Shown: in pieces, positions 24,293 through 30,472 of the stretch
Position numbering within the stretch: position 1 is the stretch's first letter
Layout of the letters: each line of letters opens with the position of its first letter
From: Elusimicrobiales bacterium
GTDB lineage: Bacteria; Elusimicrobiota; Elusimicrobia; Elusimicrobiales; UBA9959
Direction of reading: 5' to 3'
Assembly: GCA_028688015.1 (NCBI GenBank)
Contig: JAQTZB010000006.1
Location: 107,381 to 171,380, forward strand
DNA: 64,000 nt
Notes under the pieces: model-generated
Databases searched by the model: none
Told to the model about the DNA's origin: nothing
What the model saw: the letters and a program-made list of their open reading frames with translations, nothing else
Made by a program: the position numbers and the translations under genes

Positions 24293-25579
24293 CTAGGGAG
24301 ACCAGGCCGGGGTGAAGGAATTTCCTTTCATGTCGGTCAGCGGGTGCGGGGCGCTGCCATCGGCGTCCATCAGGAAGATCTCCCGCTTGCCGCGGCGGGT
24401 AGAGGTGAAGGCTATGAACCTGCCGTCCGGAGACCAGGAGGGATCCTCGTTGTCGCCTGCGGCGTTGGTCAGGCGGCGAATCTGGCTGCCGGTCAGGTCC
24501 GTGATGAAAATATTGAGTTTCTCTTTCGCGGTTTCCCTGCCGGCGAAAACTATCCAGTCCCCGGCCGGAGACCAGGAGGGCGAGTCGCACCAGTTCATGC
24601 GCGTAAGCTTGCGCGTCTTCCCGCTAGCCACGTCGAGCACGAAGATCTGCGGGTTGCCGGAGCGGTCCGAGACGAAGGACACCTCCTTGCCGTCCGGCGA
24701 CCAGGTGGGCGAGGAACTTACGCCGAATCCTTTCAGCAGCCTCTTGACCTGCTTGGTCACCACGTTCAGCGTGTAGATGCCCGGGTCCTCGCCGCGCGAG
24801 AGCGTCATCACCATCGTCATGCCGTCGGGCGAGAAGCCGCCTGGGATGTTGAGGCCCTGGAAGGTGGTGAAGGGCTTTATCTTGCCGGCCTTCATGTCGA
24901 TCTCGAACATGTCCGGGTTGCCGTAGCGGTAGGTGGTGTAATAGATGCGCGTGGCGTCGGTTGACCAGCGGGGGAGCAGGTTGATGCTGTTGTCCGAGGT
25001 GAGCTTGGTCAGGTTCTCGCCGTCGTAATCCGCAATCCAGATCTCCTTGCGGCCGGTGGCGTTGTTGGCGAAGGCCAGCTTGGAGTGCGCTATGCCGGGC
25101 TTGCCGGTCAGGCGCCGCACCACGTCGTCGGCGAACAGGTGCGCCGCGCGGCGCAGCGCGCGCTTCTCGCCCTGGTAGAACTTCTCGATCACTTTTTTCC
25201 CGGTCGCCAGGTCGTAGAGGCTGGCGGTGAAGGTCCAGACGCCGCCGGCGTCCTGCGCGCGCCCGGTGATCAGGTGGCCGGCCAGGCTCTTCCACCAGGC
25301 CAGCGACTGCTTGCCCGTGTCCAGGTTGGCGGGGGCCAGGGGGTCTTCTTTTATTTCGAAGTAGCGGGAGGAGTAGAGGTCGGCGCGGACTATCTCGCGG
25401 AAGGTTTCGGCGATCGCCAGGTCGGCTGGGTTCTGCGGCCGGGCGGGGTGGAAGCTGGCCAGCGCCAGGGCGTCGCGCTTGCCCTCGAGGGCCGGCGAAA
25501 CGCCGATATAAACCTCGGTGCCGGCAAAGGCGCCGGGAGCCAGCGCGAAAATCGCGGCTGCCAGTACCGTCTTTAACAT
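24293..25579 (-). CDS. tolB: Tol-Pal system beta-propeller protein TolB
   Basis: Signal peptide and a TolB N-terminal domain, followed by repeated P.WSPDG propeller blades (SPTWSPDGKEVSF, SPSWSPAGDWIVF, DPSWSPDGRFIAF). Confidence 0.9.
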   Translation of the reverse strand: MLKTVLAAAIFALAPGAFAGTEVYIGVSPALEGKRDALALASFHPARPQNPADLAIAETFREIVRADLYSSRYFEIKEDPLAPANLDTGKQSLAWWKSLAGHLITGRAQDAGGVWTFTASLYDLATGKKVIEKFYQGEKRALRRAAHLFADDVVRRLTGKPGIAHSKLAFANNATGRKEIWIADYDGENLTKLTSDNSINLLPRWSTDATRIYYTTYRYGNPDMFEIDMKAGKIKPFTTFQGLNIPGGFSPDGMTMVMTLSRGEDPGIYTLNVVTKQVKRLLKGFGVSSSPTWSPDGKEVSFVSDRSGNPQIFVLDVASGKTRKLTRMNWCDSPSWSPAGDWIVFAGRETAKEKLNIFITDLTGSQIRRLTNAAGDNEDPSWSPDGRFIAFTSTRRGKREIFLMDADGSAPHPLTDMKGNSFTPAWSP

Positions 25580-25582
25580 CGT

Positions 25583-26356
25583 TTAGCCTTTCTTGGGCGG
25601 AGCTTTCTTGGCCGGGGCTTTAGCGGGGGCGGCCGGTTTGGCGGGCGCCGGGGTAAGCCTGGCTATGTAGTCCTTGGCGGTCTTGGCTTCCTGGGACTGC
25701 GGGAAATCCCTGACCACGGACTGCAGATACTTCAGGGCCTCGCCCTTCTTGTCCTCTGGCAGCTTCAGCAGGGCCATGGCGTACTTGAGGCGCGCGGCCG
25801 GCACGCGGTTGCCTTTCGGGAACTTCTCCAGGACGTTGGCGTAGGCCAGCGCGGCTTCCTGCCAGCGCTCTTTCAGGTAGAGAGATTCGCCCAGCTGGAA
25901 GTAGGAACTTTCGGCCATCTCGCCGTTGGGGAACTTGGCCAGGTAGGACTTGAAGCCCGCGGCCGCGCCTTCGAAGTTGTTGTTGAGGAAGGCGGTGTTT
26001 GCGTCGTTGTAGATCTTGGCCGGCAGCAGCGAGGTTTCCACCTCTTCCTGCTGCTTGCGGATGGTCTGGCCTATGGCGTTGACGCGCTTGTTCATTGAGG
26101 TGTCTATCTCGTCGAGGCGCGTCGTGAGGCGGTCCATCTGGGTGGAGATGTCCTTCATGCTCTCCGAGGAAGCGTTGAGGTTCTTTGAGAGGTCTTCCAT
26201 CTTGACGGCGAGCTCGGCCTGGTTCTTCTGCATGTTGGTCAGGCTGGTGTTGAGGTCGTCCATCTGGCTCTGCATCTGCAGCATGTCCTGCTGCGTGGCC
26301 ACGCAGCCGGACGCCAGCAGGCAGGCCGGCAGGAGCAGCAAGTATTTCCTGGACAT
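25583..26356 (-). CDS. cpoB: Tol-Pal system protein CpoB/YbgF (lipoprotein, coiled coil + TPR)
   Basis: Lipobox LLASGC, an N-terminal coiled coil, C-terminal TPR-like repeats (YNDANTAFLNNNFEGAAAGFKSYLAKFPNG...) and a Pro/Ala/Lys tail. Confidence 0.8.
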   Translation of the reverse strand: MSRKYLLLLPACLLASGCVATQQDMLQMQSQMDDLNTSLTNMQKNQAELAVKMEDLSKNLNASSESMKDISTQMDRLTTRLDEIDTSMNKRVNAIGQTIRKQQEEVETSLLPAKIYNDANTAFLNNNFEGAAAGFKSYLAKFPNGEMAESSYFQLGESLYLKERWQEAALAYANVLEKFPKGNRVPAARLKYAMALLKLPEDKKGEALKYLQSVVRDFPQSQEAKTAKDYIARLTPAPAKPAAPAKAPAKKAPPKKG

Positions 26357-26899
26357 TTATTTACCTTTGACCTTGGTTTCGGCGCGGCGGTTGCTCAGCC
26401 AGCACTCGTCGGTCTGCTCGGAGCAGAGGGGTTTCTCTTCGCCGTAGGAGATGGTGCCCATCACGGCTTCCGGCACGCCGAGGCGCACGTAGTAGTCGCG
26501 CACGGACTTGGCGCGCTTCTGGCCCAGCGCGAGGTTGTATTCGATGGTGCCGCGGTCGTCGCAGTGGCCTTCCACCAGCACGGTCCAGTCCTTGCGGGCC
26601 TTGAGCAGCACGGCGTTGGCCTGCAGCACGGCGCGGGACTCCTCGGAAAGTTCGTAGCGGTCGTAATCGAAGTTGACGGTCTTGATGGTCTCGAAGGACT
26701 GGAAGTCCCCGCCGCGGATGTCGCCTTCGGAGGAGGCGGTGTCGGTGCTCTCCGAAATGTCGAGCCCCGGGATGGTGGCGGTGTCGGTGATCATGTCGGT
26801 GCCGTCGCCGGCGGCATTCTTGACGTTCTTCTTGTTGCAGGCGGACAGGGCGAGGGTAAGCGGCAGGACGAAAGCGAGGAGCAGGATCAATTTCTTCAT
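26357..26899 (-). CDS. pal: Peptidoglycan-associated lipoprotein Pal (OmpA family)
   Basis: Lipobox LALSAC. OmpA-like C-terminal domain (VNFDYDRYELSEESRAVL...GHCDDRGTIEYNLALGQKRAKSV...NRRAE). The internal ATG at 26899 gives MKKLILLL. Confidence 0.9.
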   Translation of the reverse strand: MKKLILLLAFVLPLTLALSACNKKNVKNAAGDGTDMITDTATIPGLDISESTDTASSEGDIRGGDFQSFETIKTVNFDYDRYELSEESRAVLQANAVLLKARKDWTVLVEGHCDDRGTIEYNLALGQKRAKSVRDYYVRLGVPEAVMGTISYGEEKPLCSEQTDECWLSNRRAETKVKGK

Positions 26900-27045
26900 T
26901 ATGTCTAAAACCTCCGTAAACTTAATACAACCCATACTTTATAAAAATCCCCGCGCCTTTACAATCAAAATCTAATTATGGGAGCGCCAACTTCACGCGC
27001 ATCGTTAAATTCTGCGGCCTAACGTAAGGGGCAGGAACGCAGGGA

Positions 27046-27388
27046 CGCTCGTTGGTTGGCGGCCTACCGCAGGAGCGGGCCGGCGAGGGTATGCCTTCTC
27101 CGGGTACGCTCGCCACACCGTGGCTCGCTCTGTCAGATCGGCCCTCGCGCTTACGCAAGCTCGGGCCGACTGAGGCCCCTACGAAGGCACACCCTCGCCG
27201 TCCCTCCGGCTCTGTAAGTACGATACCAAGCGAGCAACCAGCGGAGACCGCAGGGGGTAGGGTTAGCAAAACCCTCGTGAGGAGGAGGTTTGCGTAGCGC
27301 CGACGACGAATGCGGAGGGGAGGCCACGGTGTGGCCGACCCGCGTTTTGCGTTCCTACCCCCTGCGGTAGGCCGCCAAACCACGAGCG
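27046..27388. repeat. ~340-nt element bounded by inverted repeats and rich in dyads (candidate structured ncRNA or MITE-like element)
   Basis: A 28-nt inverted repeat (27046-27073 cgctcgttggttggcggcctaccgcagg vs 27361-27388 cctgcggtaggccgccaaaccacgagcg) matches at 26 of 28 positions. Nested dyads: 27082-27098 / 27183-27199 (16/17); hairpins gccacaccgtggc (27112-27124) and ggccacggtgtggcc (27322-27336); 27247-27261 is complementary to 27354-27368. The ORFs across it translate to Arg/Pro/Gly-rich nonsense. Confidence 0.55.
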
Positions 27389-27463
27389 CCCCTCCCCTGC
27401 TGGCCCCGACTGGGCACCTCGCGGATATCTAATGGTAATCCGGCATGACTGCCGGGGTGTGAG

Positions 27464-28318
27464 TTAGGCTGTGAAGTAGAGGCCGGCGGAGAGGAGGAGG
27501 CCGTAGATGGCTACCAGTTTGGCGGTTTCGGGGACCAGGGGGGAGAAGTCGTTCCTGGAGACCATTTTGTAAAGCTTTACAGCCAGCGGCAGGGACAGGG
27601 CGCAGAGGAGGCCCGGCCAGACACTGCCAAACGAGAAAGCGAAAAGATACGGGACGAGTATCAGTATAAAATAGTATCTTTTGGAGTTTATGGGGCCCAT
27701 CTCGGCCGCTATAGTGGAGATTTTGGCCTCATTATCGCCTTTCACATCCCGCATATTGTTGGCGTGTACAATGGCCACTATCAACAGACCTACCGGGATG
27801 GAAGCCCAGAGCGCTTCGGGCAGGACAGCGCGGGCCTGGATCAGCGCCGTGCCCGTCACTATGAACGGCCCGAAAGCGAAGAAGATGCCCACGTCGCCCA
27901 GCGCGCGGTACTTATAGGCGAAACCGGTAGCCGTATAGAACCAGGCCAGCGCGAAACCGGCCGCTCCCAGCCAGATAAGCCCGGTTACCCCGTTCTTGAA
28001 CGCCAGCAGCAAGCCTATGGCCGCCCCGGAAGCGAAGAGGGCTAAGGTCAGCCGCAGCATGGCCTTCGGCGAGATCAGGCCGTCGACCAGGCCCCGGTCG
28101 TCGGCCGTTTCTTTCCGGTCCACGCCCTTCTTGAAATCGAAGTAGGTATTGGCCATATTGGCGGCCGAATGCACTATCAGCGCCGCCAGGAAGGTAAGGG
28201 TGAAATCCAGCCTGGAAAAACTGCCGTGCCGCCCGGCTATCACGGAGCCCAGCACCACGGGTACCAGCGAGGCGGGCCAGGAGTAGGCGCGCAGAATGAT
28301 CATCCATTTCTTTATCAT
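27464..28318 (-). CDS. menA: UbiA-family prenyltransferase, MenA/UBIAD1-like (1,4-dihydroxy-2-naphthoate polyprenyltransferase)
   Basis: ~9 TM segments. First Asp-rich motif NTYFDFKKGVD. Segments YKYRALGDVGIFFAFGP and HANNMRDVKGDNEAKISTIA are collinear with MenA. Confidence 0.7.
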   Translation of the reverse strand: MIKKWMIILRAYSWPASLVPVVLGSVIAGRHGSFSRLDFTLTFLAALIVHSAANMANTYFDFKKGVDRKETADDRGLVDGLISPKAMLRLTLALFASGAAIGLLLAFKNGVTGLIWLGAAGFALAWFYTATGFAYKYRALGDVGIFFAFGPFIVTGTALIQARAVLPEALWASIPVGLLIVAIVHANNMRDVKGDNEAKISTIAAEMGPINSKRYYFILILVPYLFAFSFGSVWPGLLCALSLPLAVKLYKMVSRNDFSPLVPETAKLVAIYGLLLSAGLYFTA

Positions 28319-28334: not shown

Positions 28335-29300
28335 TCAGGCCCGGCGTTCGCCGAGCGCCAGCAGGAAGTCTTTGAGGGCGGCGGCGCCGGTTTTGTCGGG
28401 AAAAGCGTCTATCACGGGGGAAAGGCCCTTGAGCTTGTCGGCCGCGGCCCTGCGTGCGGCGCCTGAAAAACCGCCCTTCCTCACCAGGTCCGCCAGCTCC
28501 AGCGCCGGCGCCAGGTCGGCCGCCGGCCCGGCCTTGATGGCGGCCAGCAGCGCCTCCGCCTTCGGCCCTGCCTGGGGGTCTGCCAGAGCCAGGATCAGCG
28601 GCAGGGTGAACTTGCCCTCCTGCACGTCTTTCAAAGTCTCTTTGCCGCAGGCCTCGGCGTCGCCCTCGAAATCCAGCACGTCGTCCACCAGCTGGAAGGC
28701 CACGCCGGCCTCTTCTCCCAGTCTGGCGCAGGAGGCCAGCAGCTCCGGCCTGTCCGCCAGCCGGCAGGCGGCCAGCGCGCACCAGCGGAACAGCGCCCCG
28801 GTCTTGAAAACCACGATCTTCTCCGCCTGCGCGGCGGTGAGCGCCCTGCCTTTCGAATTTTCCTCTATCAGCGCGCCCTCGGTCATGCGGCGCACGGCCT
28901 GCACCAGGCTTTCCGGCAGGTCCGGGGCGGCCCGGCCGGCCCAGTCGAAGGCCATGGCGATGAGCAGGTCCCCGACCAGGATGGCGGAATTGACCCCGAT
29001 CTGGTCGTAGAGCGTCGGCAGGCCACGGCGGTAGCGGGCCTCGTCCAGGCAATCGTCGTGCAGGAGCGAGGCGGTATGGGTCAGTTCGGCCGCCGCCGCC
29101 GCTTTCTCGGCCCGCGCGCGGTCCACGCCCAGGGCGTCGGCGACCAGCAGCGTGAAGCGGGCGCGCGCCGCCTTGCCCAGGAAACTGAACGGGTGGCGGC
29201 CGAAGTCGAAAACGCCGCGGTCGATGGCGTCCAGCTCGGCGGAGATATAGCCGCCCACGGCGCGCAGCGAATCTTCAATGGTCGGGGCGGTCTTTTCCAT
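28335..29300 (-). CDS. Polyprenyl diphosphate synthase (trans-isoprenyl, long-chain type)
   Basis: FARM motif LLHDDCLDE and SARM motif FQLVDDVLD, 321 aa from MEKTAPT. The ORF-track entry 28335..30455 runs a further 385 codons antisense to czcD and is not credible. Confidence 0.85.
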   Translation of the reverse strand: MEKTAPTIEDSLRAVGGYISAELDAIDRGVFDFGRHPFSFLGKAARARFTLLVADALGVDRARAEKAAAAAELTHTASLLHDDCLDEARYRRGLPTLYDQIGVNSAILVGDLLIAMAFDWAGRAAPDLPESLVQAVRRMTEGALIEENSKGRALTAAQAEKIVVFKTGALFRWCALAACRLADRPELLASCARLGEEAGVAFQLVDDVLDFEGDAEACGKETLKDVQEGKFTLPLILALADPQAGPKAEALLAAIKAGPAADLAPALELADLVRKGGFSGAARRAAADKLKGLSPVIDAFPDKTGAAALKDFLLALGERRA

Positions 29301-29333
29301 ATTATGACGGAATATTTTAGCATTTAAAAATAA

Positions 29334-29339
29334 TATAAT
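29334..29339 (+). promoter_or_regulatory. Candidate -10 box (TATAAT) 10 nt upstream of the czcD ATG; possible leaderless transcript
   Basis: taatataattcccatataATG sits in an AT-rich 48-bp divergent intergenic region. No Shine-Dalgarno sequence is visible. Confidence 0.3.
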
Positions 29340-29348
29340 TCCCATATA

Positions 29349-30353
29349 ATGGGACATCATCACGATCACGCGCACGACCACGCCGGCCACGTTTCCCACG
29401 CCGGGCACGACCATTCCCCTCATACAGCCCGCGATCACTCCTCCCACGGCGGCCACGCCCATTCCTGCTCCCACGGCCACGGGGGCCAGGCCCAGCGCAG
29501 CGCCATCACCGCCGCTTTCTTTATCACCGCCGGCTTCATGCTGGTGGAGGCGGCCGGCGGCCTGTTGACGGGCAGCATGGCGCTGCTGAGCGACTCCATG
29601 CACATGCTCACCGACGCCGCCGCGCTGGGCATGAGCTTTTTCGCCTCCCGGCTGTCCGCGCTTAAGCCGGATTCCTCCCGCACCTACGGCTACCGGCGCG
29701 CGGAAGTGGTGGCGGCGCTGGCCAACGCCATGCTGCTGTGGCTGCTCTCCGGCTACATGCTGCGCGAAGTCTACGAGCGCTTCCAGAACCCCGTGCCCGT
29801 GCTGTCCGGACCCATGCTGGCCGTGGCGCTCCTGGGCCTGCTGGCCAACCTGGCCAGCGCGTGGATCCTGCATGGCCACAGCGAAGACAACATCAACATC
29901 CGCGGGGCCTTCCTGCACGTGGTCAGCGACCTGGCCGGCTCGGTGGCGGCCATCATAGCCGGCGCGGTCATCTATTTCACCGGCTGGTACCTCGCAGATA
30001 CCATCGTCTCGCTGCTCATCATAGGTCTCATCCTGTTCAGCTCCACCCGCCTGCTGCTGGAGGCTTTCCATATACTTATGGAGGGGGCACCCAAAGGTCT
30101 TTCCCTGAAGGCGCTGGAGCGGGAACTGCTGGCCATAGACGGCGTTTCCGGAGTGCACGAGCTGCACGCCTGGAGCCTCTCTTCCGGCTACAACGCCCTC
30201 AGCGCCCACCTGGTGGTGAAAGACCCCGCCAAGCAGCAGGCCGCCCTGCAGGTTGCCGCCTGCCGCGTAGCCCCGGCTTTCGGCCTGAAGCACACCGTCT
30301 TCCAGGTAGAGACCGAACCGGTGGCTAACGCCTCCTGCGACACGTGCGCCTGA
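29349..30353 (+). CDS. czcD: Cation diffusion facilitator family metal efflux transporter (CzcD/ZitB-like) with a His-rich N-terminus
   Basis: N-terminal MGHHHDHAHDHAGHVSHAGHDH.... Six TM segments with SDSMHMLTD and HVVSDLAGS metal-site motifs. C-terminal cytoplasmic domain (GVHELHAWSLSSG). Confidence 0.85.
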   Translation: MGHHHDHAHDHAGHVSHAGHDHSPHTARDHSSHGGHAHSCSHGHGGQAQRSAITAAFFITAGFMLVEAAGGLLTGSMALLSDSMHMLTDAAALGMSFFASRLSALKPDSSRTYGYRRAEVVAALANAMLLWLLSGYMLREVYERFQNPVPVLSGPMLAVALLGLLANLASAWILHGHSEDNINIRGAFLHVVSDLAGSVAAIIAGAVIYFTGWYLADTIVSLLIIGLILFSSTRLLLEAFHILMEGAPKGLSLKALERELLAIDGVSGVHELHAWSLSSGYNALSAHLVVKDPAKQQAALQVAACRVAPAFGLKHTVFQVETEPVANASCDTCA

Positions 30354-30472
30354 CCGGCTTAAAAAGATATGAACTTTTCTTGACCTTCCCCGGACCTTTA
30401 TCGGAGCCGCGGGGGCTAAAATTAATGTGGAGGGTTTTAGTGCGGATGTTACCAAGGTTACACAAGTTACGA

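Follow-up and report, generated by a model that had tools for sequence, protein, structure and literature searches.

A composite copy of a dispersed, structured non-coding repeat superfamily enlarges the menA-pal spacer of an Elusimicrobiales genome

The spacer between menA and pal in the 64 000-nucleotide stretch of Elusimicrobiales DNA analysed here (the window, corresponding to C54:107381-171380 of a 3.34-Mb MAG in 58 contigs, denoted G000) is enlarged by a composite copy, ~385 bp in length (27042-27427), of a dispersed non-coding repeat superfamily. This previously undescribed superfamily of an uncultured phylum has no Rfam model and is specific to one family of free-living Elusimicrobia, and its ~130-nt modules keep a conserved, strand-specific branched fold. 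The balance of evidence favours a REPIN/ERIC-like repeat family, in which the modules would be non-autonomous mobile DNA that is probably copied via a folded single strand, much as REP/REPIN or IS200/IS605 elements are.

The menA-pal gap spans 26900-27463 (564 bp). It is bordered by a MenA-like gene of the UbiA family, with its stop codon at 27464-27466, and by a minus-strand gene for a Pal-like lipoprotein of the OmpA family, with its ATG at 26899, after which follow genes for a CpoB-like TPR protein and a TolB-like PD40 protein. The relatives of this Pal come without exception from Elusimicrobia MAGs, the closest public record being GWC2_64_44 (95% amino-acid identity). In 13 relatives menA adjoins pal, and in 12 of these the spacer measures 83-186 bp; only in GWC2_64_44, the nearest relative, is the gap also enlarged (476 bp), with the same module pair present at the same site in flipped orientation. 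Collinearity with GWC2_64_44 extends from pal to 27041 and stops precisely where the repeat begins, and 27042-27427 is therefore inserted DNA. The part of the window spacer that can be aligned with the short spacers of many relatives is confined to the pal-proximal positions 26905-26965. The insert sits between the 3' end of menA and this conserved pal-proximal spacer and is probably neutral for both genes. The features of the region are as follows.

26900-27041, minus strand: ancestral pal-upstream spacer, outside the repeat and collinear with GWC2_64_44
27042-27427, no strand assigned: composite repeat unit of ~385 bp, recurring at C43:13766-14144 and C51:805062-805453
27042-27073, minus strand: End' unit, the left 'arm', a reverse complement of the D2-type 3' tail, CCTGCGGTAGGCCGCCAACCAACGAGCGTCCC
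27077-27207, minus strand: module X, a diverged D2-type module (model R1, 51.7 bits, E 2.6e-9, full length 1-131)
27208-27239, no strand assigned: 32-nt spacer separating the 5' ends of the head-to-head modules, between both R1 matches
27240-27372, plus strand: module D2 core (model R1, 136.2 bits, E 1.2e-27)
27247-27261 with 27354-27368, plus strand: D2 outer helix P1
27266-27272 (GCAAAAC) with 27345-27351 (GTTTTGC), plus strand: D2 helix P2
Within D2, plus strand: P3, a hairpin with loop GUA
27322-27336, plus strand: D2 hairpin P4, GGCCAC-GGU-GUGGCC
27361-27393, plus strand: End unit, the right 'arm', comprising the 3' strand of the D2 outer helices and the tail ...GCCGCCAAACCACGAGCGCCCC
27389-27427, minus strand: A' unit, reverse-complementary to the A end (CCGCGAGRTGCCCAGTCGGGGCCAGCAGGGGAGGGG) with which the 335-nt canonical elements begin
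27440-27455, minus strand: small hairpin CCGGCATGACTGCCGG (CCGGCAGTCATGCCGG), 9 nt past the menA stop and outside the repeat

The ancestral pal-upstream spacer carries a ribosome-binding site (GGAGG) ~10 nt ahead of the ATG and an AT-rich promoter-like stretch. At the other end of the gap, the hairpin at 27440-27455, already pointed out in the sequence-only reading and present in the sequence, is a candidate for a weak terminator of menA and could possibly serve as such; it was not flagged in the terminator scan because it lacks a T-run, and it belongs to no repeat family (own-genome coverage of 1).

The position of the insert upstream of pal and its high degree of structure would suit a cis-regulatory leader or riboswitch of pal-cpoB-tolB, or a single-copy RNA gene such as RNase P, tmRNA, SRP or 6S RNA. 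The predicted minimum free energies of 27010-27420 are -236.5 kcal/mol for the minus strand and -228.9 kcal/mol for the plus strand, compared with about -190 and -185 kcal/mol, respectively, for dinucleotide shuffles (z = -7.25 and -7.16), and none of 100 shuffles folded as well. The leader or single-copy reading, the first form of which had been offered for this gap on the basis of its letters, is nevertheless already refuted by the orthologous spacers and by the copy number, and its probability is negligible. The same gene pair stands without the insert in 12 relatives, which manage with their 83-186 bp; the stronger module, D2, is antisense to pal; and identical modules occur in 58 unrelated intergenic contexts of every kind. 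Downstream of the insert, the conserved pal-proximal spacer and the promoter-like stretch in it separate the insert from pal, and a pal leader is therefore ruled out.

Searches for known RNA families were negative. No Rfam family reached its gathering score anywhere in the window, matches in the gap at E <= 10 were limited to miRNA and lncRNA noise (E 3.6-7.8), and ARAGORN detected no tRNA or tmRNA, in agreement with the previous failure to recognize RNase P, tmRNA or SRP signatures by eye. The curated families considered as candidates and rejected on the gathering threshold comprise RNase P, tmRNA, SRP, 6S, riboswitches, ribozymes, HEARO and the group II intron. A hammerhead-like reading of CUCAUGAG...CGAAUG was also rejected: the bases concerned show the covariation of a helix, the sequence lacks the catalytic G and none of the ribozyme models in Rfam gives a score.

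A BLAST search with 27000-27440 against the window's own genome returned 118 matches, so that dispersed copies, which the earlier reading had named, together with target-site duplications, as the sign of a MITE, are abundant. The whole composite (query positions 43-425 of 434) recurs at the two loci listed above with 90% identity (C43) and 87% identity (C51). In the three-way alignment of the composites similarity starts near 27040 and ends exactly at ...CTCGCGG (27427), and the flanks are unrelated and contain no direct repeat. The core 27226-27393 is common to ~49 loci, and conservation across 49 copies falls past ~27393. Most copies belong to a 335-nt canonical element, represented by 29 full copies with 84-96% identity to the consensus and a sharp left edge, in which the A end (CCGCGAGRTGCCCAGTCGGGG...) is followed by the long D1 hairpin, the D2 core hairpin and the End tail (GCGGTAGGCCGCCAAcCACGAGCGyCCC), which is sometimes present as two or three tandem units. 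An End-type unit closes all 29 canonical copies; a canonical copy at C48:58704-59042 lies in the pgm-metK spacer. Covariance model R1 (131 positions, 39 pairs), built from 34 distinct D2 copies of this genome, matches 59 modules in it, and the forms of the copies include mosaic rearrangements, tandem tail units and truncations. Contigs C43 and C44 end in repeat copies, the assemblies being broken at repeats.

R1 matches D2 on the plus strand and X on the minus strand, which makes the window element a head-to-head pair of a minus-strand module followed by a plus-strand one. Module X, the outer stem of which is formed by 27077-27098 and 27183-27204, differs from D2 in its outer stems and shares the conserved inner hairpins GCUUGCGUAAGCGC and CCACGGUGUGG; further X-type copies are located at C44:90456, C50:50269 and C50:154698. 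Such head-to-head pairs, with the short tail units A and End pointing outward, are the typical arrangement of the modules, and minus/plus pairs were found in at least 13 loci of relatives, with spacers of variable length (~28-60 nt) that appear by eye to be less G+C-rich. In relatives, too, plus-strand modules are succeeded by this CCCCGACTnnGCATCTCGCGG tail, and the assignment of the A' unit is supported by reverse-orientation matches (query 389-427) beside many canonical copies.

This architecture accounts for the dyads that had been noted in the gap. The inverted-repeat arms are present and are longer than the 28 nt claimed (27028-27073 with 27361-27406; 46 nt, 83% complementary), the End' unit being an inverted repeat of part of 27361-27406. 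They do not bound the element as had been proposed; they are two End units, that is, two inverted copies of a module 3' tail, and are internal. The nested dyad likewise extends further than described (22 nt, 91%) and coincides with the outer stem of X. The two small hairpins (27112-27124 and 27323-27335) are exact reverse complements over 13 nt, as stated, and are the P4 tips of the opposed modules. The pairing of 27247-27261 with 27354-27368 is real (15 nt, 100%) but is not an 'alternative' one, as it forms the evolutionarily supported outer helix of D2. The local GGGTT/AACCC hairpin is paired in 82% of cells across copies, but the long-range GCAAAAC/GTTTTGC pairing is better kept (97.5%).

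The apparent boundary of the window copy by 28-46-nt inverted repeats, together with small size, lack of coding capacity, multiple intergenic copies and the existence of occupied and empty sites among many dispersed short copies, recalls a classical MITE, i.e. a deletion derivative of an insertion sequence with a DDE transposase, moved via terminal inverted repeats. In its dispersed, multicopy insertion (59 modules, with 12 relatives lacking the insert in the menA-pal spacer) this option from the earlier reading comes closest in spirit to the results, but the terminal inverted repeats and target-site duplications that define it are lacking. The mobile units have sharp ends, and these ends are not inverted repeats. 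The repeated unit 27042-27427 does not terminate in the arms, its right end being A', and the ends of the composite unit (GGGACGCTCG... and ...CATCTCGCGG) are not terminal inverted repeats. In the 29 canonical copies the ends CCGCGAG... (CCGCGAGATGCC...) and ...CCACGAGCGCCCC (...ACGAGCGCCCC) are unrelated and are not inverted copies of one another. Target-site duplications, proposed beforehand as the mark of a MITE, did not exceed chance: the flanks of the 29 canonical copies share repeats of 0-3 nt, as in a mismatched-flank control, and none was found in the three composite copies. Neither multicopy protein genes or ORFs nor a parent insertion sequence, searched for as an A...End pair more than 1 kb apart, were found in the genome. 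A classical MITE is thus largely refuted, and the chance that this description applies is slight.

Candidate partner enzymes were sought in the same genome and in its relatives. TnpB (PF07282) is encoded in none of 37 genomes, 23 of which belong to the genus of the window, although control genomes respond; a TnpB omega-RNA or an IS200/IS605-derived PATE was rejected on this ground. IS110-family genes (PF01548) occur in only 12 of 41 genomes of the genus and in neither G000 nor G034, and a module occurs within the ~1.5 kb of flank searched at only one of 12 IS110 loci, ~1 kb away, so that an IS110 bridge RNA was rejected because the IS110 genes are not flanked by modules. Y1/RAYT-like genes are common. 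The sole such gene of G000 (C12:218176-218832) carries its own, different 22-nt palindrome (AAAAAGGTGCCAGGCACCTTTTT) in its flanks and no modules, which led to the rejection of RAYT as partner, and no R1 match lies near three Y1-family transposase loci of relatives.

The sense fold of D2, modelled over ~130 nt as 39 pairs in eight helices with one branch point, takes the form of a three-way junction. It comprises an outer stem that is long and variable, an A/U-rich helix and a pair of hairpins. The hairpin loops are invariant (GCGUAGC with loop GUA, and CACGGUGUG with loop GGU), and three symmetric tandem G-A internal loops are conserved, with pyrimidine mismatches in their place on the opposite strand. 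Pair counts were taken from 82 copies from several genera in an alignment fitted to model R1: standard pairs occupy 93.7% of cells, compared with 71% in column shuffles and 33-51% with slid partners; 34 of the 39 pairs show changes on both sides; and the covariation score is 0.528, compared with 0.15 for shuffles and 0.04-0.07 for slid partners. RNAalifold applied to a plain MAFFT alignment of the copies from the window's own genome found compensatory changes in 21 of the 39 pairs. The GCAAAAC/GUUUUGC helix shows covariation towards G/C-rich versions and is preserved better than the local GGGUU/AACCC pairing. Support for the outermost helix P0 (GCGG with CCGC versus GGGG with CCCC) is only moderate because its register differs between genera. 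G-U pairs outnumber A-C pairs by 125 to 34, and the sense strand is the more stable in 70 of 76 copies; its mean advantage amounts to 7.1 kcal/mol under RNA parameters and 3.2 kcal/mol under DNA parameters. The G-U excess and the stabler sense fold indicate that one particular strand, whether RNA or single-stranded DNA, is the functional one. Conservation is higher in the interior of the module than in its outer stems and reaches 80-90% across genera, close to that of neighbouring coding DNA.

These properties would suit a functional RNA. The main rival reading, although an unlikely one, is that D2 represents a family of functional structured RNAs for which dispersal is secondary. Such a family might consist of small RNA genes in many copies, with transcription starting in the variable spacer of each head-to-head pair, or of elements that act at the RNA level on how neighbouring transcripts are processed, stabilized or terminated. 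Strong covariation in all eight helices in several genera, the strand asymmetry, the invariant hairpin loops and tandem G-A loops and the well conserved interior speak in its favour, as does the head-to-head layout, which gives either strand a sense module of its own and is compatible with divergent transcription out of the spacer, and many orthologous copies are kept in several species. A novel structured non-coding RNA had been suggested for the gap from its letters; this may hold in part, as the module shows strong covariation and strand asymmetry, but the element is not a single syntenic gene. The 20-60 near-identical paralogues per genome, with their mosaic, tandem and truncated forms, look like mobile DNA; the pair spacers contain no conserved promoter and no U-tract follows the modules; and there is no matching Rfam family.

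The genomic context also bears on this question. Genes were called with a purpose-made GC3-based caller (2690 genes, 88% coding), and all 58 placed modules of the window's own genome are intergenic. Among the 56 modules with called genes on both sides, 17 lie in convergent spacers, 36 in co-directional spacers (15 sense and 21 antisense) and three in divergent spacers; the corresponding numbers for single modules of relatives are 19 convergent, seven divergent, 13 sense and nine antisense. Co-directional spacers of both sets combined hold 28 sense and 30 antisense modules, and this unbiased orientation speaks against the modules acting in cis on host mRNAs and counts against the functional-RNA reading. 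The avoidance of spacers with divergent promoters is consistent with copies being inserted into 3' regions or tolerated only there, and intrinsic terminators adjoin many copies. On contig C51 all 12 full or near-full-length copies point in the same direction, and on C41 the direction switches once, which hints at a replication-linked orientation bias, with GC and GC3 skews too weak to assign replichores.

R1 modules were detected in 58 of 151 sampled genomes of the order, all of them in one family (f1) and distributed over six genera, including almost every genome of the window's genus. Genomes in which up to 150 candidates were scored contain 16-42 or more modules each. No R1 modules were found among the sampled genomes of the small-genome family f2 or of family f3, and IMG/VR viral contigs yielded no true match, a lone pattern match failing the R1 model. 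Two genomes, G104 and G089, have a single module each, and it adjoins housekeeping genes (murC-like and proC-like) and not mobility genes. Insertion polymorphism was assessed by searching the joined flanks of ten loci of the window's own genome in six relatives. At four of the ten loci G020 or G017 has collinear flanks that enclose no element, and at a fifth a solo A-type unit of ~50 nt is present in G011; the alignments with these three genomes are too diverged in intergenic DNA to define a target motif or exact boundaries. The polymorphic loci are occupied in other species. The occurrence of occupied and element-free versions of the same loci indicates that copies are gained or lost, and the many insertions common to several species indicate that this turnover is slow.

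The reading preferred here remains that of non-autonomous mobile DNA, which the evidence makes somewhat better than an even chance. Under this model a trans-acting enzyme would copy the modules by recognizing their folded single strand and not terminal inverted repeats, with a recognition logic like that of the REP/REPIN-RAYT and IS200/IS605 HUH systems, and the modules would land in, or be tolerated only in, gene-distal 3' intergenic DNA beside terminators. Several observations count against it: the searches found no mobilizing enzyme; the conserved interior and the 80-90% cross-genus conservation are atypical of selfish DNA and characteristic of functional RNAs; and turnover is slow, with insertions common to several species. 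There is perhaps one chance in a few that D2 represents a new class of functional structured nucleic acid, either an RNA or a folded single-stranded DNA signal, acting with an unrecognized protein. If so, it would belong to a new folded-single-strand mobility system or to an RNA-based genome-maintenance or regulatory system, and the 20-60 copies per genome, confined to one groundwater family of Elusimicrobia, would be working parts and not junk.

The largest non-coding gap of the window is thereby explained and a false lead is removed, as it contains neither a pal riboswitch nor a missing housekeeping RNA. A literature search found no paper joining Elusimicrobia with repeat or RNA-motif terms. 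The superfamily shows an unusual mix of traits, combining REPIN-like pairing and dispersal with the deep covariation, invariant loops and strand asymmetry of functional RNAs, and it could reveal a new structure-guided mechanism of mobility or regulation if a partner enzyme or an RNA function were found. Model R1 can be used for annotating these repeats across Elusimicrobia MAGs.

Several known systems invite comparison. The omega-RNAs of TnpB/IscB (HEARO) and the bridge RNAs of IS110 are structured RNAs of 130-250 nt with a conserved scaffold that can be multicopy, as the modules are; however, no variable guide-like loop is evident in the modules, TnpB occurs in none of the 37 genomes, the IS110 genes do not adjoin modules and the HEARO model does not match. 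The BIMEs of Escherichia coli consist of short REP motifs with protein-binding linkers (IHF, gyrase). The present repeats resemble them as mosaics of short motifs (here A, End, D1, D2 and X) in fixed relative orientations at gene 3' ends, and differ in that the modules are long and individually structured.

ERIC (IRU) sequences are reportedly enterobacterial imperfect palindromes of ~125-130 nt in 20 to several hundred copies. They are strictly intergenic in either orientation, their cross-genus conservation is close to that of coding DNA and larger variants arise through internal insertions; they are described as bounded by terminal inverted repeats with a TA duplication. The modules are like them in kind only, as ~127-nt imperfect palindromes that are intergenic in either orientation and conserved across six genera. 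They lack target duplications, the fold of D2 is branched and clearly strand-asymmetric, and, the phylum being different, no sequence kinship is expected.

REP/REPIN sequences are intergenic palindromic units mobilized by RAYT (Y1 HUH) transposases (Bertels & Rainey, 2011, PMC3116915; PMC3337134). A REP unit is a simple hairpin of 20-40 nt, whereas the unit here is ~130 nt in length and forms a three-way junction with conserved internal loops, and the one RAYT-like gene of G000 is flanked by another palindrome and not by modules. The likeness lies in the intergenic palindromic units, arranged in inverted pairs around a short spacer in tens to hundreds of copies; in the absence of terminal inverted repeats of the DDE kind and of target duplications; in the occurrence of tail units solo or in tandem; and in a long vertical persistence within the lineage, with a folded single strand presumably being what is recognized.

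The self-complementary 400-nt pgm–metK spacer in G000, the genome to which the window belongs, is another member of the D2 repeat family, a canonical copy of 335 nt.

G000 C48:58704-59042, canonical 335-nt repeat copy, adjoining metK (C48:57399-58595)

Behind some elements in G000 the End unit, a short tail unit (~30 nt, GCGGTAGGCCGCCAAcCACGAGCGyCCC), is repeated two to three times in tandem, suggesting slippage or repeated one-ended events.

G000 C39:70880-71290, tandem End units
G000 C51:256193-256560, tandem End units
G000 C41:173400-173795, tandem End units
G000 C12:91827-92215, tandem End units

In the related genome G011, the locus orthologous to C51:684786, a site occupied in G000, carries only a solo A-type unit of ~50 nt (CCGCGAGAGGCCCAGCCTGGGCC...; locus L119, G011:C8:5900-6620), and thus tail units can exist alone. 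Repeat copies are interrupted by contig ends at C43 and C44 of G000. This assembly includes 44 small contigs of 2.5-4.8 kb (among C1-C38, C45-C47 and C52-C58), several with gene copies at least 80% identical to genes on large contigs; these duplicates fit a strain mixture or contamination, which software estimates at 6.9%.

Two features lie near the window copy of the repeat.

Window 28335-30455, minus strand, 706-aa ORF adjoining menA
Window 24293-26899, minus strand, pal followed by a TPR (CpoB-like) gene and a PD40 (TolB-like) gene

The polyprenyl synthetase match in the ORF is confined to residues 423-630. Pfam gives no match for the ~420 residues at the N terminus, where GC by codon position is also unusual (GC1 0.77); this N-terminal extension may be genuine, or it may reflect an over-called start. 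The names pal, CpoB-like and TolB-like are consistent with the Pfam domains of these genes, and tolQRA are absent upstream of them.

A gene resembling the transposases tied to REP/REPIN palindromes lies outside the window.

G000 C12:218176-218832, Y1/HUH RAYT-like gene, 218 aa, within region C12:218085-218860

The palindrome AAAAAGGTGCCAGGCACCTTTTT is present on either side of this gene and at four further loci. The gene and its palindromes are a small REP–RAYT system, separate from the D2 repeat family.
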